Part shown: one piece after another, positions 21,978 through 33,530 of the stretch
Layout: each line of letters begins with the position of its first letter
How positions within the stretch are numbered: position 1 is the first letter of the stretch
Assembly: GCA_945889655.1 (NCBI GenBank)
Contig: CAMDCH010000002.1
Span: 1-44,846 of the forward strand
From: a bacterium HR33
Lineage (GTDB): Bacteria > Gemmatimonadota > Gemmatimonadetes > Gemmatimonadales > GWC2-71-9
Direction of reading: 5' to 3'
Length of the DNA: 44,846 nt
Translations under genes and position numbers: made by a program
Notes under the pieces: generated by a model
The model's input: only the letters and a program-made list of their open reading frames with translations
Told to the model about the DNA's origin: nothing
Databases searched by the model: none

Positions 21978-22217
21978 TCACTTGACGTGCTGGGAGATCA
22001 CTTCGCGCAGCTTGTCGTCACTGATGCGCTCGGCCTGGACGAAAAGCGAAGACTTGGAAAGCGATTCGATCGGGAACGGGGCCCAGAACACCCGCCGCTC
22101 CGGCGCAACAGCGCGGAAGGACAGGAAAAGCTGCCACAACTGGGCGTTGGCCGTACGCTGGGCGGCCGGCTGCACATTCCACTTCTCGCCCGCCGCGTCG
22201 ATGACTCTCCACGCCAT
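21978..22217 (-). CDS. hypothetical protein (79 aa)
   Basis: In ATG GCG TGG AGA GTC ATC GAC GCG..., 23 of the first 26 third positions are G/C. No recognisable family. Confidence 0.45.
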   Translation of the reverse strand: MAWRVIDAAGEKWNVQPAAQRTANAQLWQLFLSFRAVAPERRVFWAPFPIESLSKSSLFVQAERISDDKLREVISQHVK

Positions 22218-22219
22218 TT

Positions 22220-22235
22220 TGTGACCCCGGTCACA
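22220..22235. promoter_or_regulatory. perfect CRP/FNR-type palindrome TGTGA-N6-TCACA
   Basis: TGTGACCCCGGTCACA is a 16-bp perfect inverted repeat. It starts 3 nt upstream of the ATG of the 79-aa ORF. Confidence 0.35.
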
Positions 22236-22322
22236 CAGTGTAAAAGGAGGTGTGGGGCCAATATGCCCGTTACCTGTAGGACGGGCAAGGGTGACTAAAG
22301 GAAGGCGTTTGTGAGGTTTGAC

Positions 22323-23960
22323 CTACACGAAAGCGAGCTGCGTTTCAACCAGCTGGCGATAGATGTCGCTCGTCTGAAGGAGGTCGGCGTGGATGCCGGT
22401 GGCAACCACGCGGCCCCCGGAGAGGACCACGATGCGGTCCGCCGCCAGGACGGTGCTGAGCCGGTGGGCGATGATCAGCGCCAATCGCTGGTCACGGGTT
22501 TCCTGGAGCGTTTCGAGTATCCGGCTCTCGGTTTGCGCGTCGAGACCGCTGGTCGCTTCGTCGAGCACCAGGATCGCCGGGCCGCCGGCCAGCGCCCGGG
22601 CCAGCGCGATCCGCTGGCGCTGGCCGGCTGAGAGTGCCACGCCGCGCGGTCCCACGCGGGAGGCGCGACCCGCCGGGAGTCCGTCAACGAAATCCGCCCC
22701 CGCAGCCTCCAGGGCATCGCGCACATCCTCGTCAGAAATCGTCCGGCCCAGCGTGACGTTCCACTCAACCGACTCATCGAAGACAAAGGCATCCTCGAAC
22801 ACCACGCCGATGTCGCCGTCCAGGGTGACGCTCCCGCGATCCGGAGCCTGGAGCCGGAGGAGGACGTGTGCCAGGGTGCTCTTCCCCGCCCCACTTTCCC
22901 CCACCACGGCCACGATCTCGCCGCGGGCGAGCCGCAGATCCACCTCGTCGAGCACCGGTTCACCGGGACGGTAGGAGAACGACACACCCTCCGCCTGGAG
23001 CCGCGCCGAGCGGGACCGGGAGGCCGCGGGCGCCGGTTCGTCGGCGGCGGGTTCGGAGATGAAGGAGAAGACGCTAGAGGCCGCGCCTTGGTGCTCCGCC
23101 AGCGCGGCCAGGGAATCGAACACCACGGAGAGCTGGCCCTGGAACCGGGCCAGCACCACCGCGAATGCGAGGATCAGCGTGGAGCTGGCAAAGAGTCGTT
23201 CCGGTGAAACCGCGAGCGCGACCCCGAGAGCGCCGAGGAGTATCAGGGCGTTCGCGACCTCGGAGAGGGGCCGGAGGGCGTGGCGCCAGCGGTGCAGCGC
23301 GAGCGTCGAATCGAGCACCGCGCGGTTGGCTGCACGATGAAGGTCCAGCCGGCCGGCCGGCGTCCCCATCGCCCGGACGACCGCATGCCCGCCGGCGTCG
23401 TCTGAAACGACCGCGCTGGCGTCCTCGTCGGCGCGCACCATCGCCACGGCCGCCGCGGCGACACGCCGCCGGACCATCCACGCGATGACCGTACCGGCCG
23501 AGAGAATCAGGACCGCCCCCAGGCCCAGCCTCCACGACAGCGACGCCATCATCACGAGGTATACCGCGACGAGCATCAGCGCCCCACCCAGCGCGACCAC
23601 CGCCGAGAGCGCCGACGCGACGCGTTCGGCCTGCACCGAGAACAGGTTGACGATGCGACCCGGGCCGAGGTGCTCCACGTCCCGGTAGCGGGCGGCGTAG
23701 AACCCGCGGGCCAGCCGCTCCCGGATCGACAGCAACACTCGCAGGTGAAGGCGCACGCCGAGCATGTCGAGCGCGTACCCCGCCCCCGCCCGCAACACGA
23801 TGACCCCTGCCAGCAGCAGCGCGCCTCTCCAGAGCGTCTCGGCCGACGCCGCGCGGAAGGCCGCGAGAACGGGCGGCACCAGTGCCAGGCAAGCGGCCTC
23901 GAGTCCCGCGACCACCGCGCTCATGGCGGCCATCACCACTCCCGACCGGCCAAGCTTCAT
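22323..23960 (-). CDS. ABC exporter (fused permease + ATPase), McjD-like position in a lasso-peptide cluster
   Basis: 545 aa with an N-terminal 6-TM region. Walker A GESGAGKST, signature LSAGQRQRIALARAL and Walker B ILVLDEATSGLD. The ATG at 23960 overlaps the kinase stop (ATGA). Confidence 0.92.
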   Translation of the reverse strand: MKLGRSGVVMAAMSAVVAGLEAACLALVPPVLAAFRAASAETLWRGALLLAGVIVLRAGAGYALDMLGVRLHLRVLLSIRERLARGFYAARYRDVEHLGPGRIVNLFSVQAERVASALSAVVALGGALMLVAVYLVMMASLSWRLGLGAVLILSAGTVIAWMVRRRVAAAAVAMVRADEDASAVVSDDAGGHAVVRAMGTPAGRLDLHRAANRAVLDSTLALHRWRHALRPLSEVANALILLGALGVALAVSPERLFASSTLILAFAVVLARFQGQLSVVFDSLAALAEHQGAASSVFSFISEPAADEPAPAASRSRSARLQAEGVSFSYRPGEPVLDEVDLRLARGEIVAVVGESGAGKSTLAHVLLRLQAPDRGSVTLDGDIGVVFEDAFVFDESVEWNVTLGRTISDEDVRDALEAAGADFVDGLPAGRASRVGPRGVALSAGQRQRIALARALAGGPAILVLDEATSGLDAQTESRILETLQETRDQRLALIIAHRLSTVLAADRIVVLSGGRVVATGIHADLLQTSDIYRQLVETQLAFV

Positions 23961-24883
23961 GACGCGAGGTCCTTCTCAATCGCGTCGCAGAGCGAGGGGA
24001 GCTTCGCGAGCAGCCGTGGGTACGCGAGCCGCTTCACGGGCACCGCGGCGGCGACCGCGCTCGCAAGCCGGAACTGGTTGGCGAGCCGCTCGGGACCGGT
24101 GACGATCGTGTTGAACGTGTTCCGGACGGTTTCGATCATGGCGGCGGCAGGGTCGAGCCGGCGGATCGCGATCCGGGCCGAGGGCAGCGTGGGATCGGAG
24201 AGCACGTAGATCGCGCGCAATGGCGCAGCGCGACGGCTTGCCCGGTGTTGGTCGAGCGGCAGGACCATCTTGCTCGTTCCCGGGTTCATGCGAGTCCCCT
24301 CGCGCCCCCCCAGGACCGCACGCGACACCGCGGGAAAGAGCTTGATGCGGGGGACGCCGGCGTGGACCAGGAACCCGCCGCCGCCGCGCGGGGCGAGCGA
24401 GACGAGATCATCGGTCAGGACGGGGAACCCGCGCGCCAGCATCGCCGCGCCGAGCGTGGACTTGCCGTAGCCGGTGTCGCCCAGGAAGGCAACAGCGCCG
24501 CCATCGACCACCACGACCGTCCCGTGCAGCGGCTCACGGCCGAGTGCCAGGAGCGAAAATGACAGGACCTGGCTCAGCAGGTAGGTACTGAACGACTCTC
24601 GCGACGCCCTGCGGAGACGCCGATACTCGATGCGGCGGCCGTCCGGTGAAATCAGAAAATCGAAGAGGTTGGTCCAGCCGAGATACATGGTACCGTCCGC
24701 GAGCTGGCGGCAGCGGAACCAGTCGCGCGCGTTGGGAAGACGGGTGCCGCGGAGCGCGCCGGCGAAGCGGCGGCGCGGTGCGGGAACGAGCCTGACGGTG
24801 GGTACTGATACCCGCGACGCACGGGGGCACGGGAGGGCAAGCGGACTCTGAAGACCGAGGCCGTAGAGCCGGTACAGGCTCAG
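23957..24883 (-). CDS. HPr-kinase-like P-loop serine kinase (lasso-peptide tailoring kinase candidate)
   Basis: P-loop FLGDTGYGKSTLGAAMLARGFPVLTDDL. The N-terminal LYRLYGLGLQSPLALP resembles the start of HprK-like RiPP kinases. No ATG/GTG/TTG is available there, so the start is provisionally placed at the CTG at 24883, which overlaps the precursor TGA. The first ATG (M145 of the track ORF) would remove the N-terminal domain. Confidence 0.75.
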   Translation of the reverse strand: MSLYRLYGLGLQSPLALPCPRASRVSVPTVRLVPAPRRRFAGALRGTRLPNARDWFRCRQLADGTMYLGWTNLFDFLISPDGRRIEYRRLRRASRESFSTYLLSQVLSFSLLALGREPLHGTVVVVDGGAVAFLGDTGYGKSTLGAAMLARGFPVLTDDLVSLAPRGGGGFLVHAGVPRIKLFPAVSRAVLGGREGTRMNPGTSKMVLPLDQHRASRRAAPLRAIYVLSDPTLPSARIAIRRLDPAAAMIETVRNTFNTIVTGPERLANQFRLASAVAAAVPVKRLAYPRLLAKLPSLCDAIEKDLAS

Positions 24884-25038
24884 GAGTTGGAGCCCGACGC
24901 CCGCGTGGTAGGCTTGCGCGCACCGTCGGCCATGCTGCCCTTCTTTACCAGGGTGAGTGCACGCAGATCGCCGTGCACCACGAGGCGAGGGGCCTGGTAG
25001 GGACGTTTCGGATGCGCCAAAGACTTCCTGGGACTCAT
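24880..25038 (-). CDS. lasso-peptide precursor (52 aa: MSPRKSLAHPKRPYQAPRLVVHGDLRALTLVKKGSMADGARKPTTRASGSNS)
   Basis: Track ORF 24880..25083 trimmed to the ATG at 25038, which has GGAGGT 6 nt upstream and overlaps the cyclase stop (ATGA). The leader fits YxxPxLx3Gx5Tx (Y14, P17, L19, G23, T29). The predicted core is VKKGSMADGARKPTTRASGSNS. Confidence 0.75.
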   Translation of the reverse strand: MSPRKSLAHPKRPYQAPRLVVHGDLRALTLVKKGSMADGARKPTTRASGSNS

Positions 25039-26942
25039 GATCTGACCTCCATCTGGGAGCGACTGAAAAATACCCGTAGCCATGCCTCCAAGCCAAGCAG
25101 GTCAACCAGGTCCCACCCATCGGTGGCCTCTTTGCCCGCCAGTCCGGCGGCCATCCGGTCGACCGCCGGCTGAAGGCGACCGCCGTCCACGTAGCCCATC
25201 CTCACCCCCAGGCTACCCGGCCCCAGGCGGGCGCGAATTGCCGCCAGGTCCTGGGCCACGCCGTGGTTCGTGGCCTCGGTGAAGTCGGCCTTCCAGCGGC
25301 GCGCGCGCACCCGTTCCGGCAGGATGCCGCGCATCGCTTCCCTGAGTATGGCGCGCGGGACGCCTTCGTGATTCTGGACCTCGCCCGGGATCGCCATCAG
25401 GAACGCGAGCAAGTCGCGGTCCAGGAATGGGAACGCCGCCTCGAGCCCGTGCGACGCCGCGATCTTGTTGTTCCACTCCATGCACTGCACATGGTACTTG
25501 GACCGGGCTTCGAGGTACAGCGAGCGCGCCTGCGCCGAATGAAACCCGCTTCCCAGCATCGCCGGCCGGTCCGCATCCTTCAGTCCGCCGGCGAGGAACC
25601 GGTCCGAATACCAGGAGCGGGGACGCGCATCGGCAAAGAGCCGCCGCCGCACCCACTTCAGCGGCCCGACCAGCGCGTCCGGCGCGTGGTGGCGGAGCAG
25701 TTCCATCGGCAGGCGGCCGCGGAGCGTAGCCACTTCTTCCCTGCCGAACCACCGCAGGTACTCGCGCGTGTGGCTCCATGCCTTGCGCCAGGCGAAACGA
25801 CTCACGAGATCAACCAGGTACGCCGGCGAGAAGAGCACCTGGTCACCCCAGTGTCCCGAGAGCATCACCCGCGCACCCGCGCGCCCGGCGCGCGCGTCCA
25901 GCTCGCAGGTAACGCCCCACTGGTAATCGAGAAACGGCGCCTCGATGGCACCCACCTGCGTCTCGACCCCGGCTAGCGCACCCGCGTGCACTTCCATTGG
26001 AAAGCGCCCGATGGAGACGCCGTATTCGCGCTCGATTTCCTCGAGATACTCGCGCTCATCGGCGTCCGAACCCGTGGCACCGAGGTACGCGAAACCAAGC
26101 ACGGAGCCCGTTCGTAGCTTCTGCGCCTGGCAAAAGATGGACGATGAATCGAGCCCGCCGCTGGTGGAGACGGCGACCGGGTATGCAGATCGCACGCGTC
26201 GTGCCACCGCCTGGGCAAAGAGCTCCGCGAACGCATCGCGGTACTCCTCGAAGCGGCTAAGTCGAATGGCCGCCGAGGGATCGAAGTCCCAGTAGCGCCG
26301 TGCAACAGCGGCGTCCGTTGTGACGGTGACAACATGCGCCGGGACAACTGCGGAAATCCCTGCAAAGCACGTGACATCCTGCCGGTCTACGGGTCGAGCC
26401 CCTACCAGGAGGAAATCGGCCAATCCCTCGTCATCGGGCGCGGCGCGAATCTCGGGATGCGCCAGGAGGGCCTTGATCTCGGTAGCGAACGCGACGAACC
26501 GTTTGCCGCGGTGGTAGTAGAGCGGCCGGATCCCGATGGCGTCGCGCGCAAGGATGAGGCGGGCCCGTGCCGAGTCGTAGAGCGCGAGGGCGAAATCCCC
26601 GCTGAGATGGTCGACGAACGAGTCGCCAAGGCGAGCGTAGGCCGCGAGCACCACTCTCGCGTCGGTGCTGGATGACGACAGACCCAGCTTCGAGATCAGC
26701 TCAGGACGATTGTCGAGCCGGCCATCCCAGGCCAGCAGGAGGCCCTGCTCGTTGAGCGGCTGCCGTTCGCCGACCTCCTCGGGCGTGATCCACATGCGAC
26801 GGTGCGCGAAGCCGACCGCGCCCGCGATGCACCGGTCGCCGCCATCGGGACCGCGGTGGGCGAGCGTGGCGTCCATGCGTTCGAGGACGGCCGGCGACAG
26901 CGGAGCGCCGTCGGTATTCCACACTCCCGATATCCCGCTCAT
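25035..26942 (-). CDS. asparagine-synthetase-like lasso-peptide cyclase (C protein)
   Basis: Track ORF 25035..27350 trimmed to the ATG at 26942 (MSGISGVWNTDGAPL...). It has an N-terminal Ntn-amidotransferase-like domain and an AsnB-type adenylation domain (AVSTSGGLDSSSIF PP-loop). Confidence 0.9.
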   Translation of the reverse strand: MSGISGVWNTDGAPLSPAVLERMDATLAHRGPDGGDRCIAGAVGFAHRRMWITPEEVGERQPLNEQGLLLAWDGRLDNRPELISKLGLSSSSTDARVVLAAYARLGDSFVDHLSGDFALALYDSARARLILARDAIGIRPLYYHRGKRFVAFATEIKALLAHPEIRAAPDDEGLADFLLVGARPVDRQDVTCFAGISAVVPAHVVTVTTDAAVARRYWDFDPSAAIRLSRFEEYRDAFAELFAQAVARRVRSAYPVAVSTSGGLDSSSIFCQAQKLRTGSVLGFAYLGATGSDADEREYLEEIEREYGVSIGRFPMEVHAGALAGVETQVGAIEAPFLDYQWGVTCELDARAGRAGARVMLSGHWGDQVLFSPAYLVDLVSRFAWRKAWSHTREYLRWFGREEVATLRGRLPMELLRHHAPDALVGPLKWVRRRLFADARPRSWYSDRFLAGGLKDADRPAMLGSGFHSAQARSLYLEARSKYHVQCMEWNNKIAASHGLEAAFPFLDRDLLAFLMAIPGEVQNHEGVPRAILREAMRGILPERVRARRWKADFTEATNHGVAQDLAAIRARLGPGSLGVRMGYVDGGRLQPAVDRMAAGLAGKEATDGWDLVDLLGLEAWLRVFFSRSQMEVRS

Positions 26943-26957
26943 AGATTTGAGTATACC

Positions 26958-27254
26958 ATGCCCGTTCCCGTGATTGCCCCGCACACCACCGTCGTTTCCG
27001 CCGGCGAGCTGCTGTCCAGCGAGTTCGGCGAAGAGTTCATCATCCTGAACCTGAAGGACGGGATTTACTATGGGCTGGATCACGTCGGTGCCCGGGTGTG
27101 GACGCTCATCAAGCAACCGATGACCGTGGGCGCGGTGCGGGATGCGCTGGTGGCGGAGTATGAGGTGGACGTTGCCCAGTGCGAACGCGATCTCGTTGCG
27201 CTGCTCGAGGACCTGGTGACCAAGGGGCTGGTCGAGCTCCGGGCGGACGCCTGA
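26958..27254 (+). CDS. PqqD-family RiPP recognition element (lasso B1 protein)
   Basis: Track ORF trimmed to the ATG at 26958. ...GEEFIILNLKDGIYYGLDHVGARVWTLIKQPMTVGAVRDALVAEYEVDVAQCERDLVALLEDLVTKGLV is a typical PqqD fold signature. Confidence 0.85.
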   Translation: MPVPVIAPHTTVVSAGELLSSEFGEEFIILNLKDGIYYGLDHVGARVWTLIKQPMTVGAVRDALVAEYEVDVAQCERDLVALLEDLVTKGLVELRADA

Positions 27255-27685
27255 GCAAGCTCGCGAAGTTCTTTGGGCTGCCCGCGACCGACAAGTGGCT
27301 GCTCGTTCGCACGGCGTTCGTGATGACGCTGGTGCGGGTGGGACTGGCACTGATGCCCTTCTCGGCGCTGAAACGGCTGGTGGAGAGGGATAGAACCGGA
27401 ACCTCGGAGGGTCTGGCCGACCTTCCCGAGCGGGTTTCCTGGGCGATCGCCGTGCTCTCGTCGCGGGTCCCGGGAAAGAACACCTGCCTTGTCCAGGCCC
27501 TGACCGCCGACTCGCTGCTCCGTCGCGGTGGCTACCGGCCCACGCTGCGCATTGGCGTGGCGGGACGGAATCCGGGTGGGACCATCAAGGCCCACGCGTG
27601 GCTGGAGTGCGAAGGCCGAGTGATCACCGGCGGACTCGAGGACCTATCCAGCTACTCGGTGCTGACGTCGCCCGGACGGGGATGA
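27251..27685 (+). CDS. transglutaminase-like cysteine protease (lasso B2 leader peptidase)
   Basis: NTCLVQALTADSLLRRGGYRPTLRIGV...IKAHAWLECEGRVITG contains the Cys and His of the B2 catalytic site. The family-like N-terminus LSKLAKFFGLPATDKW begins at the CTG at 27251, which overlaps the B1 TGA. The alternative start is the track GTG at 27179 (76-nt overlap with B1). Confidence 0.72.
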   Translation: MSKLAKFFGLPATDKWLLVRTAFVMTLVRVGLALMPFSALKRLVERDRTGTSEGLADLPERVSWAIAVLSSRVPGKNTCLVQALTADSLLRRGGYRPTLRIGVAGRNPGGTIKAHAWLECEGRVITGGLEDLSSYSVLTSPGRG

Positions 27686-28782
27686 CCGAGGCGGTCGCCC
27701 GGATTCTCCGCGGCGAGGCCCCCGCATGGAGCGAGGTCGGCGCGACACCCGCCGCCTTTCTCGAATACTGCGAGCGGGAAGACCTGATTCCCCTCGTTCA
27801 TCACAACCTGCACAGTGGTTGGCCCGTGGAGGTCTCGGCGGCGCTGGAGCGCGCGGCCCGCGATGCCGCAGCCCGCGAGATGGTCCGGCGACAGGAAATC
27901 ACCCGCGTTCTCACCCTGCTCGACGAGGCCGGCATCCGGCCGATCGTCTTCAAAGGAACCGCCCTCGCCTATCTCGTCTATCCGGCGCCCGGACTTCGCC
28001 CGCGCAACGACACCGATCTTTTGATCCGCCGCGCTGACGTGGACCCAGCGCGCGCCGTTTTCGCGGCAACCGGATACGTAGAGCCCGCATACAGTGGTGA
28101 CGAGCTGCTCTTCCGGCAGTTTGAGGCGCAGCGGGAAGATTCTCTCGGTGTCCACCATGCGTTCGATGTCCATTGGGAGATCAGCACCCAGTCCGCCTTT
28201 GCGAACCTGCTCTCCTACGATGATCTCGCGAATTACAGCGTGCCGGCGCCGATGCTGGGGGCCGCCGCGCGAGCGGCGGGGCCCGTGGAGGCGCTGCTCA
28301 TCGCGTGCGTCCATCCAGCCATGCACCATCGCAATGAAGAACGGCTGATCTGGCTGTTTGACGTGCACCTGCTGGCGGGACGGCTCGCACCGGAGGAATG
28401 GAAACGGTTCAGCGCGACTGCCCTGTCACGAAAAACAGGAGTCGTATGCGCATACGCGCTGCGACATGCGCATGACCTGCTTGGAACCGCGATACCCCCT
28501 CACATCATCAACAATCTGGAGTCCGCAGCGGGCGATGAGCCAACCGCCGCCTACCTCGACCGGTCGCGCTCGTGGCGGCATGAGGTCGGTGCGAACATCC
28601 GCGGGCTTTCATCGTGGAGTGACCGGCTCGGCTTGCTGCGGGAGATCGCGTTTCCGCGGCCGAGCTACATACTAGAGAAGTACGAATGGAAGGACACGCT
28701 GCCGGCTCGGCTCGGACTACCGTGGCTCTACTTCAGGCGCGCGATGGAAGGGACCTGGAAGGTGGTGTCCGGGAAAAAATGA
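27682..28782 (+). CDS. nucleotidyltransferase-family protein of the type found in lasso/RiPP clusters
   Basis: Track ORF trimmed to the ATG at 27682, which overlaps the B2 stop (ATGA). IVFKGTALAYLVYPAPGLRPRNDTDLLI carries the G-x...D-x-D nucleotidyltransferase signature. Confidence 0.78.
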   Translation: MTEAVARILRGEAPAWSEVGATPAAFLEYCEREDLIPLVHHNLHSGWPVEVSAALERAARDAAAREMVRRQEITRVLTLLDEAGIRPIVFKGTALAYLVYPAPGLRPRNDTDLLIRRADVDPARAVFAATGYVEPAYSGDELLFRQFEAQREDSLGVHHAFDVHWEISTQSAFANLLSYDDLANYSVPAPMLGAAARAAGPVEALLIACVHPAMHHRNEERLIWLFDVHLLAGRLAPEEWKRFSATALSRKTGVVCAYALRHAHDLLGTAIPPHIINNLESAAGDEPTAAYLDRSRSWRHEVGANIRGLSSWSDRLGLLREIAFPRPSYILEKYEWKDTLPARLGLPWLYFRRAMEGTWKVVSGKK

Positions 28783-28786
28783 CGCC

Positions 28787-29971
28787 TCAGATACCGCGGC
28801 TCAGTTGAACGAGCGACCCACCTGAACCGACGCGGTAACGATAGACGAAGTCGAGAGGATCGCCCGACTCGACCTCAAGCGGACATCCAGCAGTCCACAC
28901 GGCCACGTTCCAGCTGCAGCCGTCGTGAGCGCGGCGCGGATCGTTCGTCAGCGTGATGCCGCGAGCGAGATCGAGCTCGAAATACTCCACGACGGCATCA
29001 ATGCGCCCGGCCGCACTGGCCTGGATCGAAGCGGTAGCGTCCACCGCGGCGCCCGTGAACGACGCCAGGTCTACCTTGCTGAGCAGCGCGGGGTCTGACA
29101 GCGGCTCCCACCCTTGAGCGACTCGCGGCCTCACAAAGAACGGGGCAATCTCGTGTCGTTGCCGTGCCAAGGCGTGAAAATCCATGTCGTACCATTCCCG
29201 CCACCGCGCCGCGGCAGCTTCACTCGCGATGCGTCCTCCCAAGGGGTCGCCCCCAATCGAAACGGGCAAGGCGTAGGTCCTGAGACCGGAGGGAATCATC
29301 CGGGCGCCCGGGACCAGGAGCCGCTTGCGCGCGTCCAGCAGGACTTCCAGCAGGCTCTCGGCCAGCGGCTCGTGGCCGACGATCTCCGCCACCAGCACGT
29401 CCGCACGCTTCTCGATGGTTACCTGCGTCGACCAGTTCTGCAGGACCGAGATGCGCTGAGTGAACCCATTCGCGCGAACCATCTCGCGGGCGGTCTCGGC
29501 GACGCTGTCAGCTTCGATCGCGTAGACCTGCCCGGCACCCGCTTTCGCTGCCGCGATGGCCAGGACGCCGGTCCCGGTTCCTATGTCGAGCACCACGTCC
29601 CCCGGTTTCACCGTGGCCTGAACTGCCGCGATGAACCCTTCGGTCCGCACCCGGTCATTGAGCATGACCACGTGATGATCCAGCGAAATGGTCGAGGTCC
29701 TGACCGGCTCCCCGTCTCCGATCAGGGCCCCGACGCTGATGAGCTGATCCATCGTAGAGACGCAATCCATCCAGTCCTGCGCCCCGGTGAGCCGAGGCTT
29801 GAGCAGCTCGACTGCCTCCTCGATGGTGAGCAAGCGGCCGAAAACGTCGAGAATCCCCAGGGCATGCGGGCCGGCGTGCAGGTCTGTGCCGTTGACCGAG
29901 ACACGTACGCCTGAGACCTCAGTGCGGATGATGAGGCCCGGAGCGCGAGAATAGCGAACACTGTCCATCAC
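28787..29971 (-). CDS. PRMT-like class I SAM-dependent methyltransferase with N-terminal PqqD/RRE-like domain
   Basis: The N-terminal ~85 aa (GVRVSVNGTDLHAGPHALGILDVFGRLLTIEEAVELLKPRL...MDQLISVGALI) look like a winged-helix RRE. The core VVLDIGTGTGVLAIAAAKAGAGQVYAIEADS...ADVLVAEIVGHEPLAESLLEVLLDARKRLLVPGARMIPS matches PRMT motif I, post-I and the double-E loop. Start is the GTG at 29971 or the ATG at 29968, both overlapping the M1 peptidase stop. Confidence 0.78.
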   Translation of the reverse strand: MMDSVRYSRAPGLIIRTEVSGVRVSVNGTDLHAGPHALGILDVFGRLLTIEEAVELLKPRLTGAQDWMDCVSTMDQLISVGALIGDGEPVRTSTISLDHHVVMLNDRVRTEGFIAAVQATVKPGDVVLDIGTGTGVLAIAAAKAGAGQVYAIEADSVAETAREMVRANGFTQRISVLQNWSTQVTIEKRADVLVAEIVGHEPLAESLLEVLLDARKRLLVPGARMIPSGLRTYALPVSIGGDPLGGRIASEAAAARWREWYDMDFHALARQRHEIAPFFVRPRVAQGWEPLSDPALLSKVDLASFTGAAVDATASIQASAAGRIDAVVEYFELDLARGITLTNDPRRAHDGCSWNVAVWTAGCPLEVESGDPLDFVYRYRVGSGGSLVQLSRGI

Positions 29972-31863
29972 TCTCGGGCGTTGTTGCTGCGGTCAATGTC
30001 CGGCAGCCCCGCGTGCGGATCGATCTCGGCCCGGCGAACGCGTTTGCCCGCGACACGGTAGGTGAATTGCGAGCCCAGGTTCCACATCTCCACGGGCAGC
30101 TCCACCGGGACCACCGTGCCGTCCTGGTACGTAATCGCCAGCTCGGCCGGCATGATCATGGTCCCACGACTCGACAGGTGTATCGCCGAGCCGCTGTCCG
30201 AGACAACGACCGAATCCACCGCCTGGTCGAGCCGGGCGGTGGTGTAGATCCACCCCCGCCAGAACCAGTCCAGCTCCATCCCCGAGACGTCGCGCATCAC
30301 GCGGAAGAAGTCGGCGGGCGTGGGATGCTTGAAGGCCCACGCGCGCGCGTACTCGCGGAAGGCTGCATCAAAGCGTTCCTTGCCAAGCACCTCGTTCCGC
30401 AGCAACCGCATCATGAGCGCCGGCTTCTGGTAGCCCGCCCAGAGCAGGTCACGGACCTGCGTCGGTACCGCGATCAGCGGCTGTTCGTCGCCGGGCTTCC
30501 CATGCTCGGGATAGAGGTTGAGGGGGTGCTCCTGGATGGTGTCACCGTAGGCGGTGCCGTCGAAGTAGTTCGCCGTGTTCTCCAGGTCGATGAACGTGTT
30601 GAACCCTTCGTCCATCCACGGGTAGAGCCGCTCGTTGGAGCCCACGACCATCGGGAACCACTGGTGCCCGAACTCATGCGCGATCACCCATTGCAGGTCT
30701 TCACGGGTGGGACTGTCGGGACAGAAGGTCAGCATCGGGTACTCCATCCCAGCGATGGGACCCTCGACAGTGGTCGCGTGCGAGTAGGGATAGGGATACC
30801 ACTGCTCGCTGAAGTGCTTGATCGCCTCGCGTCCCATGCGGTTGGCTTCTTCCCACTTGGTCGCGGAGGGCCGGTAGAGCGTCTCGACCAGCGCCCACTT
30901 GTAGCCACTCGCGTCCCAGCGCAGTCCGGGACTCGTGGCCCAGGCAAAGTCGCGCACGCTGTCGGCCGCGAAGTGCCAGGTGAGCATTCCGCTCGCAGCC
31001 GGCCGAGTCTTCGCGACATCGCCCGCCTCTTCCTTCGTAATGATCCCGATGGCGGTGTCCGATGTGCGTGCCCGCGCGAGCCGCGTGCGCTGTGTTGCGG
31101 TCAGGACCTGGAGCGGGTTGAGCAGCTTGCCAGTGGCCGCGACCAGGAACGATGCGGGCACCGTGAGCGAAACGTCGAAGCTGCCGTACTCCAGGTAGAA
31201 CTCGCCTGCGCCGATGTACGGCTCATGATTCCAGCCGCGCACGTCGTCATAGACCACAAGACGCGGATACCACTGGGCGACCTGGTAAAGTTGTCCGTCC
31301 CGCCCCATCCGCCCCGCCCCCGCCACCGGCACGTGGAACCGCCAGCCGATGGCCACGGTCGCGACGGCACCGGAGGCGAGGGGCGCCGGGAGATCGATCC
31401 GCATGGTGGTCCCCGTGACCAGCGGCGTCACCCGCTTACCCGCAACGACCACCGAGTCGAGCGTCACCCCGCCCTGGAATCCCTGGCAGGAGAAGTCGAA
31501 CGCGGTGCCCAGGAAGACCAACGGCGGCTGGTTCAGCTGGTTGGTGACGCTGTTCGGCGCGCAGATGTTCTGCTCGAGGAAGAGCCACAGGTAGCTGAGC
31601 GTCTCGGGCGACCGGTTGGTGTAGCGGATCGTCTGCCGGCCGGTGATCTCGTTGGTCGCAGTGTCCAGCGTCGCGGCGATCGTGTAGTCCACGCGCTGCT
31701 GCCAGTAGCCTCGCCCCGGGCGTCCGGAACCAGTCCGGACCTGGTTCGGTGCCGGAAGGTCGAGTGGGCGAAAGAGCGAGGTGTCCGCCGCGCTTTGCTG
31801 CGCGCGACTGGCCACGGGGGCGGCGAGAAGAACCAGGGCGAGACCGATGATCCGCGACACCAT
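29968..31863 (-). CDS. secreted M1-family zinc metallopeptidase (aminopeptidase N-like)
   Basis: Signal peptide MVSRIIGLALVLLAAPVASRAQQ. HEFGH followed 18 residues later by E (HEFGHQWFPMVVGSNERLYPWMDEG), the M1 HEXXH-X18-E motif. Confidence 0.9.
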   Translation of the reverse strand: MVSRIIGLALVLLAAPVASRAQQSAADTSLFRPLDLPAPNQVRTGSGRPGRGYWQQRVDYTIAATLDTATNEITGRQTIRYTNRSPETLSYLWLFLEQNICAPNSVTNQLNQPPLVFLGTAFDFSCQGFQGGVTLDSVVVAGKRVTPLVTGTTMRIDLPAPLASGAVATVAIGWRFHVPVAGAGRMGRDGQLYQVAQWYPRLVVYDDVRGWNHEPYIGAGEFYLEYGSFDVSLTVPASFLVAATGKLLNPLQVLTATQRTRLARARTSDTAIGIITKEEAGDVAKTRPAASGMLTWHFAADSVRDFAWATSPGLRWDASGYKWALVETLYRPSATKWEEANRMGREAIKHFSEQWYPYPYSHATTVEGPIAGMEYPMLTFCPDSPTREDLQWVIAHEFGHQWFPMVVGSNERLYPWMDEGFNTFIDLENTANYFDGTAYGDTIQEHPLNLYPEHGKPGDEQPLIAVPTQVRDLLWAGYQKPALMMRLLRNEVLGKERFDAAFREYARAWAFKHPTPADFFRVMRDVSGMELDWFWRGWIYTTARLDQAVDSVVVSDSGSAIHLSSRGTMIMPAELAITYQDGTVVPVELPVEMWNLGSQFTYRVAGKRVRRAEIDPHAGLPDIDRSNNARE

Positions 31864-31898
31864 CCAGGGCTCCTGTTCGGATGCCGGGGAAGATGCTC

Positions 31899-31934
31899 AA
31901 AAGAAAGGGCCGATGCACGTGCACCGGCCCTTTC
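31899..31934 (-). terminator. intrinsic terminator downstream of the HtrA-like gene
   Basis: Minus strand: GAAAGGGCCG-12 nt loop-CGGCCCUUUC followed by UUUUG. The plus strand also carries TTTCTGCTT after the stem. Confidence 0.6.
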
Positions 31935-31958
31935 TGCTTCCCGATCTGATCAGTGGCC

Positions 31959-33530
31959 CTACTTGACTCTCATCCTCACGACGCGTGACCCACCGCGCTC
32001 GCCCGGCCCCTGGGCGTTGTAGACCCGCAGCTCGACGATGTCGCCGGCCTTGACGGTGGAGACTGCCTGGGTGAATTCCGTCACCGTCCTCACGCGGGTG
32101 CCGTCCACGTGGGTGATGATGTCGCCCGGCCCGTCCTGGGCCGCTGGCTGCAGTTTCTCTGCCGCGGGACCGTCCTGATCCACCGCGGTGACGCCGAGCC
32201 CCGTGTTCTCGGGCGTGTCACCTGACACGGGTGCGACGCTGATCCCCAGCTTCTGGTTGAGCGGCGCCGCGGCAGGAGCCCGGCCGGCACGGCCGGTCGA
32301 GCTCGTTGCTACGGGTTCTTCGCTAGGCGCGGCGATCAGGGCCACCTTCAGGTTCACCTTCACACCGCCCTTGCGCTGAACGGTGAGCGTGACGATTTCG
32401 CCCGGCTTCCGGAACGCCACCGCCTGCTGGAACTGCGCGATGTATTCAATCATTTTCCCATCGATCGCGACGACGACGTCGCCCGGCCGCACGCCCGCGG
32501 CCTCCGCGGGACTGTTCTCGACTGAGAAGTCCTGCACGACCGCACCGCTCACCGCGTCGAGCTTCGCGTACTCGGCGTCTTCCGGCTGGACCGTCCCGAG
32601 TCGCAGGCCGATGATCGCGCGATTCACCTTTCCATTCTTGATCAGCTCATCCATCACATGCTGGGCCAGGTTGCTCGGGATCGCGAAGCCGTAGCCTTCG
32701 TAGGTGCCGGTCTGCGTGGCGATCGCGGAGTTGATGCCGATCACCTTGCCGTCGGCGTTCACCAGCGGGCCACCGGAGTTGCCCGGGTTGATCGCGGCAT
32801 CGGTCTGGATGAAGTCCTGGATGCCGTAGTTGGTTTCTCCATTGCGCAGGCCGTTCAGGGGGCGCCCCTTGGCGCTCACGATGCCGGCCGTTACGGTGAA
32901 CGTCAGATCCTGCCCCATCGGGTTGCCGATGGCGAGAACCCATTCACCCACCCGGGTCGAATCCGAGTTTCCGAAGCTCACGACCGGCAGGTTCCGGGCG
33001 TCGATCTTGATGACGGCGACATCGGTCGCGGGGTCGCGGCCAACCACGGTCGCGGGATACGTGCGGCCGTTGAAAAGCGTGACGCGCAGCCTGTCAGCGT
33101 CACGCACGACGTGGCTGTTGGTCATGATGTAGCCATCCGGGCTGACGACGAAGCCGGTGCCCGAGCTGGTGCTGCGCTGCATGCCGTCAGGGTCGGTGTC
33201 AGGCATGCCGGGCATGGGGGTATTCGGGTTCTGTCGCTGCCACTGCCGGAAGAAGTCCTGGAATGCATCGGAGCGGCTGTTGGGCACCGGGGCCGCGCGC
33301 CGGGTGTCGGCCCGGATGAAGACCACGGCCGGCCGCACGGTCTCGGCCACGTTGGCAAAGGCATCACTCCACGCTGCCATCGTGTTGGCGGTAGCCGCCG
33401 GTGCCGCCACGGCGGCGGGGGCGGACGCAGCCGGTGCCGACGGGTGCTCGACCGCCCAGGCCACGAGGGCCGGGCCGAGCAGGATACCGAGTCCGGCGCC
33501 GAGCTGAGCGTATCTCTTCCACAGCTTCAT
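31959..33530 (-). CDS. htrA: HtrA/DegP-family periplasmic serine protease with two PDZ domains
   Basis: Track ORF trimmed to the ATG at 33530 (AGGAG upstream). Catalytic motifs IMTNSHVV, D in the loop and GNSGGPLVN. Two PDZ-like segments with GVRPGDVVVAIDG and GPGDIITHVDG. Confidence 0.93.
   Translation of the reverse strand: MKLWKRYAQLGAGLGILLGPALVAWAVEHPSAPAASAPAAVAAPAATANTMAAWSDAFANVAETVRPAVVFIRADTRRAAPVPNSRSDAFQDFFRQWQRQNPNTPMPGMPDTDPDGMQRSTSSGTGFVVSPDGYIMTNSHVVRDADRLRVTLFNGRTYPATVVGRDPATDVAVIKIDARNLPVVSFGNSDSTRVGEWVLAIGNPMGQDLTFTVTAGIVSAKGRPLNGLRNGETNYGIQDFIQTDAAINPGNSGGPLVNADGKVIGINSAIATQTGTYEGYGFAIPSNLAQHVMDELIKNGKVNRAIIGLRLGTVQPEDAEYAKLDAVSGAVVQDFSVENSPAEAAGVRPGDVVVAIDGKMIEYIAQFQQAVAFRKPGEIVTLTVQRKGGVKVNLKVALIAAPSEEPVATSSTGRAGRAPAAAPLNQKLGISVAPVSGDTPENTGLGVTAVDQDGPAAEKLQPAAQDGPGDIITHVDGTRVRTVTEFTQAVSTVKAGDIVELRVYNAQGPGERGGSRVVRMRVK

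Follow-up and report, generated by a model that had tools for sequence, protein, structure and literature searches.

We analyzed a 44,846-nt stretch of DNA from bacterium HR33 (Gemmatimonadota; contig CAMDCH010000002.1, positions 1 to 44,846), here called the window, around a small open reading frame (ORF) that lies within a gene cluster for lasso peptide biosynthesis. Scans with Pfam and NCBIfam models place the genes for a cyclase (C), the precursor (A), an HPr-kinase-like kinase (K) and an ATP-binding cassette (ABC) exporter (D) in this order on the minus strand. The genes B1, B2 and N are divergent on the plus strand and encode a recognition element for peptides that are synthesized ribosomally and modified post-translationally (RiPP recognition element, RRE), a leader peptidase and a nucleotidyltransferase. 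The last of them is convergent with a gene for a predicted fusion of an RRE-like domain to a protein arginine methyltransferase (PRMT), and 4 nt separate the two stop codons. The best overall explanation, to which we assign a probability of about 0.8, is that the ORF encodes a class II lasso precursor with the processing and tailoring proposed below. In its basic identity it is an ordinary lasso precursor, which the hidden Markov model of NCBI alone would name; the tailoring, all steps of which we infer, is a probable new variant.

The ORF translates as MSPRKSLAHPKRPYQAPRLVVHGDLRALTLVKKGSMADGARKPTTRASGSNS followed by a stop codon. Its coordinates, strand and 52-residue translation agree exactly with those given in an earlier sequence-only reading of this DNA, and Y14, P17, L19, G23 and T29 of the leader stand where that reading had put them. 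The precursor scores 25.7 bits with the NCBIfam model NF033521 ('lasso RiPP family leader peptide-containing protein'; cut-off 19). A search of the six-frame translation of the window for the leader pattern and, after it, a short tail that has Asp or Glu at core positions 7-9 returns one match, with 0.01 expected per dinucleotide-preserving shuffle of the window. The precursor ATG and the cyclase stop codon overlap in ATGA, and the precursor's own stop codon overlaps the start region of the kinase gene. Between the ORF and its closest homologue, at locus L001, 12 codons are identical, 16 differ synonymously and 11 non-synonymously, and this synonymous excess points to selection on the precursor protein. 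The sequence-only reading would have been refuted by absence of the small ORF from related syntenic clusters; L001 and many other genome and metagenome loci have a homologous ORF in the interval from C to K.

A chance or decayed reading frame that yields no product could be suspected from the gene directly downstream, and this point counts against the reading preferred here: no ATG, GTG or TTG is present at the conserved start of the kinase gene. The conserved N-terminus of the kinase begins at a CTG (24883..24881) that overlaps the precursor stop codon (CTGA), where L001 has ATGA. Conservation with homologues extends over the 64 residues that precede this Met, the earliest in frame (72% identity to P0004), and a public gene call for this kinase (P0003, 243 aa) starts from the internal Met. 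Possible explanations are initiation at the CTG, lowered expression or an error in the sequence. Given the low expectation by chance, a score above the cut-off of a curated model, syntenic conservation with synonymous excess, and intact enzymes throughout, a decayed or accidental frame is scarcely credible. With all core enzymes present, the assignment of the ORF as a genuine lasso precursor within a complete biosynthetic gene cluster is well supported.

Table 1. Features of the lasso peptide locus, in positions of the window
Feature	Coordinates	Strand	Details and basis
Lasso precursor gene (A)	24880..25038	minus	52 aa and stop; ATG 25038..25036, TGA 24882..24880
Leader peptide M1-L30	24949..25038	minus	Y(-17)xxPxLx3Gx5T(-2)x, read from sequence
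Predicted 22-residue core VKKGSMADGARKPTTRASGSNS	24883..24948	minus	no Cys; V31 codon 24948..24946, last codon ends at 24883
Asp8 (D38) codon, predicted macrolactam acceptor	24925..24927	minus	invariant in family alignment
P13-T14-T15-R16, PxT[RK] tail motif	24901..24912	minus	association with kinase clade
Thr15, proposed phospho-acceptor	24906..24904	minus	inferred assignment
GGAGG, Shine-Dalgarno-like	25046..25050	minus	7 nt 5' of precursor ATG
Lasso cyclase (C)	25035..26942	minus	Asn_synthase PF00733 (5.6e-44), GATase domain, SGGLDS motif
HPr-kinase-like precursor kinase (K)	23957..24883	minus	Pfam and NCBIfam scans, catalytic motif alignment
ABC exporter (D), transmembrane and ATPase parts fused	22323..23960	minus	Pfam
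B1, PqqD-type RRE	26958..27254	plus	PF05402 (2.9e-18)
B2 leader peptidase, transglutaminase-like	27179..27685	plus	PF13471; NF033537 96.6 bits (cut-off 33)
NTP_transf_5 nucleotidyltransferase (N)	27598..28782	plus	PF14907 (2.5e-38)
RRE-PRMT fusion methyltransferase, 394 aa	28787..29971	minus	Pfam, PDB search, fold model, profile comparison
M1-family metallopeptidase	29968..31863	minus	

A protein search with the 52-residue precursor returned a single homologue, P0002, with 61% identity; its gene lies on a 3.2-kb contig and is flanked by those of a cyclase and a kinase. This scarcity at the protein level can be explained by the fact that small ORFs are seldom called as genes. Homologues of the kinase number more than 540, and the few with source names come from metagenome-assembled genomes (MAGs) of Gemmatimonadota. 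Relatives of the precursor were recovered from the DNA near kinase homologues in 80 genome and 80 metagenome loci, obtained by way of the kinase alignment and scanned for small ORFs bearing a lasso leader. Related small ORFs occupy the same cluster position in many clusters of Gemmatimonadota, Acidobacteriota and Vicinamibacterales; the leader motif is kept in all of them, and the C-A-K order with B1, B2 and N close by is common to L001-L010. In its flanks L005, from a Gemmatimonadota MAG, further has orf147 and LysM/SLT genes in common with the window (58% identity), which makes Gemmatimonadota the most likely source of the window. A strict family of 13 sequences, including that of the window and otherwise derived from Vicinamibacterales, Gemmatimonadota and Acidobacteriota MAGs and unassigned metagenome contigs, shares the pattern xKxGxxxDG..KPxT[RK] and aligns unambiguously. 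Core residues K2, G4, D8 and G9 are invariant in this family, and KPxT[RK] is nearly so.

The ring and the cleavage site follow from the leader spacing and this alignment. Residues Y14, P17, L19 and T29 fall at positions -17, -14, -12 and -2, so that V31 is taken as residue +1, the same logic by which the cleavage site of BsfA was placed (PMC10368454). The sequence-only reading had proposed cleavage before V31, an Asp at core position 8 and an 8-residue ring, and had called for an alignment with precursors of kinase-containing clusters; in the alignment made here Asp8 is present in 13 of 13 sequences. Position 8 is also the commonest register of the acceptor Asp or Glu among 74 kinase-linked precursors. 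Rings of 7-9 residues are all known, and a different register might be considered: the leader could be cut a single residue before the proposed site (Leu1-Asp9) or after it (Lys1-Asp7), or Asp38 might not be cyclized. The spacing is not absolute across the family, the xKGG..D block lying 6 residues further from the T(-2) motif in L088 and 2 further in L090. We regard another register as improbable, since all four leader positions point to V31 and the xKxGxxxD block keeps one register across the 13 relatives. The cleavage site is best placed before V31, and a predicted Val1-Asp8 macrolactam is accepted as well supported on the strength of the leader spacing and the invariant Asp8. The predicted core is without disulfide-forming Cys, which would place the peptide in class II.

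The same earlier reading had described Val as an atypical first residue. This holds among characterized lasso peptides, none of which was found with Val1 in the literature searched, but not within the family, where residue 1 is Ala in five sequences, Val in three, Ser in three and Thr in two. Inside this family Val1 appears ordinary, position 1 varying among small and beta-branched residues. The insertions in L088 (9813-9935, LVVPPA/VKGGAKSD) and L090 (1284-1403, GP/SKGGAKQD) directly follow the leader T(-2)x; either cleavage in these two loci is not fixed at T(-2)+2 or an additional N-terminal trimming step exists.

The adjoining kinase is HPrK-like by its Pfam and NCBIfam matches and has an intact catalytic motif. 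The conserved His, the GxxGxGKS motif and the Asp-Asp pair are present; a 39-sequence alignment shows no variation at H120, G135, G140, K141, S142, D158 or D159 and hardly any at G138. Their spacing equals that of the BsfK motif (H148-G163-G166-G168-K169-S170-D186-D187), which was validated by mutagenesis (PMC10368454). Paeninodin (PadeA/PadeK) and the ThcoA/ThcoK and SyanA/SyanK systems are likewise class II, with split B1/B2 and an HPrK-like kinase with a His-Lys-Asp-Asp motif. Their hosts belong to a different phylum, and the Paenibacillus and Cohnella kinases are ~25-33% identical to that of the window. Kinases of this type act on the linear precursor, and PadeK, ThcoK, SyanK and PsmK phosphorylate its strictly conserved C-terminal Ser (PMC9266682). 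In contrast, it is the Thr of the PxT[RK] motif that is conserved in the family studied here.

Several lines of evidence single out this Thr. Of 31 precursors whose linked kinases share 40% identity or more with that of the window, 18 carry the motif, and several others have near variants of it (VKTK, MKTK, VNTR, PKTF); it is present in 0 of 41 whose kinases fall short of 40%. Its Thr, located 6-9 residues past the ring acceptor, is the sole conserved hydroxyl residue in the clade of the window. Moreover, it is the only Ser or Thr in three cores, two of them from one locus (L005a, AKRGRRFDGIGRPRTRVRILNP; L005b, AKAGRRNDGAGKPRTRLGGRRA; L009, GDRRNKAEPGGVKTKLGGGG). The C-terminal residue of the strict family is Ala in six sequences, Thr in two, and Gln, Pro, Lys, Arg or Ser in one each, the lone Ser being that of the window peptide itself. 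Among the larger sets, a C-terminal Ser is found in 4 of 31 precursors with the more similar kinases and in 6 of 41 with the less similar ones. The sequence-only reading had proposed the C-terminal Ser as a paeninodin-type phosphorylation site; a site of that type is conserved across homologous clusters, which is not the case here, and at the level of the family the proposal was not upheld.

Because the PxT[RK] Thr is conserved and tracks the kinase clade and the C-terminal Ser is not conserved, we favor Thr15 over Ser22 as the likeliest phospho-acceptor, with modest confidence. A paeninodin-type pathway, in which the kinase phosphorylates Ser22, the nucleotidyltransferase decorates that phosphate and PxT[RK] is structural or target-binding, has some evidence on its side. 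The window core does end in Ser, the residue used by every characterized kinase of this kind except BsfK (PMC9266682), and the pairing of K and N genes resembles pseudomycoidin; the tail motif might have another role, in binding a target or as a steric plug. These points count against Thr15. The C-terminal Ser's distribution, the cores in which the motif Thr has no hydroxyl-bearing companion and the low identity to the Paenibacillus and Cohnella kinases make phosphorylation of Ser22 rather unlikely. A positive control failed: neither a relaxed leader pattern nor a listing of the small ORFs upstream of the cyclase recovered credible C-terminal-Ser precursors in Paenibacillus, Cohnella and Sphingomonas loci, so that the C-terminal-Ser rule for the known systems rests on the literature (PMC9266682).

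A precedent for an HPrK-like lasso kinase that acts on an internal core residue is given by BsfA/BsfK of Bradymonas sediminis, in which BsfK, stimulated by B1, phosphorylates Ser3 (PMC10368454). The BsfA ring is closed between Gly1 and Asp8, as is predicted here between Val1 and Asp8. The two systems differ in that the BsfA site lies inside the ring, whereas position 3 of the window family is K, G, N, R or A, never Ser or Thr in the clade of the window, and the candidate Thr15 lies in the tail; in addition, BsfA has Ile at -2 and the window peptide the canonical Thr. Pseudomycoidin (PsmK/PsmN, Bacillus pseudomycoides) shares with the window the joint presence of kinase and nucleotidyltransferase-like genes, and an NTP_transf_5 gene co-occurs with the kinase in related loci. 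PsmN adds hexoses to the phosphorylated residue (PMC9266682); the pseudomycoidin site is the C-terminal Ser, and its cluster has no PRMT-like enzyme. Overall, the system appears to resemble the phosphorylated class II group of paeninodin, pseudomycoidin and Bsf, without the conserved C-terminal Ser, the one feature that defines the paeninodin type on the precursor side.

The methyltransferase encoded next to N was compared with known structures and with the lasso B1 proteins. In a PDB sequence search the top matches were all PRMTs (PRMT4.2, PRMT7 and PRMT6; E ~1e-24). An AlphaFold model built from 41 sequences reached a predicted local distance difference test score (pLDDT) of 89.7, and its 50 best fold matches were all PRMTs, with 304-343 aligned columns including the beta-barrel and a target template modeling score (TM-score) of 0.68-0.84 for single-module PRMT targets. 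Residues M103, L104, D106, R109, G131-G133, E196, E205 and W354 are invariant among homologues and form the signature MLxDxxR, GTGTG, a double-E loop in which E196 and E205 show the usual spacing of +9, and a THW-like loop that holds W354. By model and signature, then, this is a PRMT-fold enzyme with an intact double-E loop, its Rossmann and beta-barrel module spanning residues ~95-394. Conservation of residues 1-90 extends to every full-length homologue. Aligned as a profile with 88 lasso B1 sequences (hhalign), the N-terminus gave a probability of 90.4% and E of 1.4e-6 over 86 columns, and in the model residues 6-79 form four strands followed by three helices (DSSP). This N-terminal part (residues ~1-90) is thus an RRE-like domain, with leader binding as its predicted role.

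According to established PRMT enzymology, the signature found here denotes methylation of arginine, not lysine. The earlier suggestion that a PRMT-like neighbor might modify Lys or Arg of the core therefore stands in part: the PRMT fold, the RRE-like domain and the recurrence of the enzyme in kinase-type clusters support it, Lys is ruled out as target by the active-site signature, and the chemistry points to R11 and R16.

The connection of this enzyme with the lasso pathway is less certain. Genomic contexts were looked up for ten RRE-PRMT homologues, of which five (P0132, P0139, P0158, P0181, P0145) lie inside kinase-type clusters and two more (P0166, P0212) beside NTP_transf_5, with or without PqqD. 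One RRE-PRMT-containing locus, L168, encodes a precursor (MDKAVEYEAPEIRRIGTFVDLTQ / QGQGRGRGRGRGRGRGGGHS) in which a lasso-type leader is followed by an RG repeat, the classical substrate motif of PRMTs. The other precursors linked to RRE-PRMT all have Arg, within VNCR[IV]E (L163, L169, L171) or GRTRT (L167). In the strict family, 9 of 13 sequences have Gly at core position 11 and the window alone has Arg there (D-G-A-R-K-P), and the window is also the sole member with a PRMT neighbor; a single coincidence of this kind is a lead only.

Alternatively, the methyltransferase may be a mere neighbor that belongs to an M1-peptidase operon and serves another substrate, the mature peptide being without methyl-arginine. 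Several observations weigh in this direction, and so against a role in lasso tailoring. The start of the methyltransferase gene overlaps the stop codon of the upstream M1-family metallopeptidase gene, implying translational coupling and probable co-transcription of the two; the N-terminal sequence of the peptidase suggests a signal peptide, and the peptidase is elsewhere not tied to lasso genes, an M1 homologue being found near a kinase in just one other locus (L059). The closest relatives of the precursor (L002-L006, L010, L083, L087) have no PRMT neighbor, and three of the ten RRE-PRMT homologues (P0126, P0173, P0150) are away from lasso genes. On the other side stand the homology of the RRE-like domain to lasso B1, the 4-nt distance from the N gene of the cluster, the seven homologues in kinase-type or NTP_transf_5 contexts and the RG-repeat precursor of L168. 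On balance, the methyltransferase belongs fairly probably to the lasso pathway, and the view of it as a bystander is the less probable but still plausible one. That an Arg-methylated product is actually made is a separate question, and we consider it doubtful.

The proposed pathway can be outlined as follows. Based on homology and gene context, B1 would bind the YxxPxL leader and B2 would cleave after Leu30. The cyclase would then activate the side chain of Asp8 and join it to the amine of Val1 to give an 8-residue ring, through which the 14-residue cationic tail is predicted to thread, and the ABC transporter would export the product. The HPrK-like kinase would phosphorylate the linear precursor, most likely at Thr15 of PxT[RK], and the NTP_transf_5 enzyme may extend this phosphate, as PsmN does in pseudomycoidin. 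The RRE-PRMT probably binds the same leader by its own RRE-like domain and would methylate R11, in a G-A-R context, or R16. On a further-reaching reading, rather less likely than not, the end product would be a cationic lasso peptide with two tail modifications that are not known to have been described in combination: a phospho-Thr within PxT[RK], possibly glycosylated or nucleotidylated, and a methyl-arginine introduced by the leader-guided bacterial RRE-PRMT.

Known methyltransferase or Arg-directed tailoring of lasso peptides comprises the lassomycin-type C-terminal O-methylation (StspM), the aspartimide lasso peptides with PIMT-type enzymes and the Arg deimination of citrulassin. Unlike the methyltransferase of the window, none of StspM, the PIMT homologues and the PADs has a PRMT fold or an RRE fusion, and no description of PRMT-type tailoring or of Arg-methylated lasso peptides was found in the literature searched. 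Lasso clusters of Gemmatimonadota were counted only in antiSMASH-type surveys (PMC11316326). The present analysis points to a large uncharacterized clade of kinase-type lasso clusters in Gemmatimonadota and Acidobacteriota that breaks the C-terminal-Ser rule and offers a specific alternative site, and it links lasso biosynthesis to a predicted RRE-fused enzyme of the PRMT fold. If methylation takes place as proposed, arginine N-methylation would join the repertoire of RiPP modifications, and the product would be, as far as the literature searched shows, the first Arg-methylated lasso peptide or RiPP. A bacterial PRMT would thereby gain a defined natural substrate, and a leader-directed PRMT could be used in peptide engineering.

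A second PRMT-related family was encountered near other kinase genes. PRMT-like tblastn matches lie next to kinases at 19 of 161 loci, but they are not all counterparts of the methyltransferase studied here: most are short, without RRE and without the double-E loop. As these short enzymes form a different subfamily with no bearing on Arg specificity, the basic-residue content of the associated cores was dropped as evidence. Their genes directly follow the precursor or kinase gene in L008, L014, L019, L042, L127, L128, L130, L131, L135, L136, L144 and L159, which are more distant kinase-type lasso clusters. The double-E loop of this family, which has no RRE, is replaced, the first Glu being usually Asp and the second absent; several of the linked cores end in ...CL and are without Arg.

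Two other RRE-PRMT loci have unusual compositions. Locus L168 (1182-7642; GCA_020064125.1, JAITZQ010956273.1) contains B1, the precursor, an HPrK/ScmC-like kinase, an ABC transporter, the RRE-PRMT and NTP_transf_5, and no cyclase or B2 within the 13 kb examined. Its RG-repeat core has no Asp or Glu acceptor and ends in Ser, and its product may be a linear, Arg-methylated, phosphorylated RiPP instead of a lasso peptide. In L166 (5966-9203; ENA ERZ26167084 contig_3) the genes for an RRE-PRMT homologue, a 176-aa PqqD protein and NTP_transf_5 are inserted between rpoBC and the rpsL-rpsG-fusA-tuf ribosomal protein cluster, with no cyclase nearby.

The remaining observations concern gene boundaries and organization. 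The cyclase (ATG 26942, minus strand) and B1 (ATG 26958, plus strand) start divergently with 15 nt between them, and because of this short distance their promoters must be inside the neighboring coding regions, or one of the starts is mis-assigned. A scan of 22000..32200 for promoters and terminators gave counts at or under shuffle expectation. B1 matches the lasso_PqqD_Bac model at 69 bits, under its curated cut-off of 80. The true B2 start is probably downstream of 27179, and N likely begins with an ATG at 27682 that overlaps the stop codon of B2. Tandem pairs of precursor genes of the same family are located upstream of one kinase gene in L005 (9543-9983, Gemmatimonadota MAG) and in L006 (9257-9900, Acidobacteriota MAG); the window has one precursor gene.

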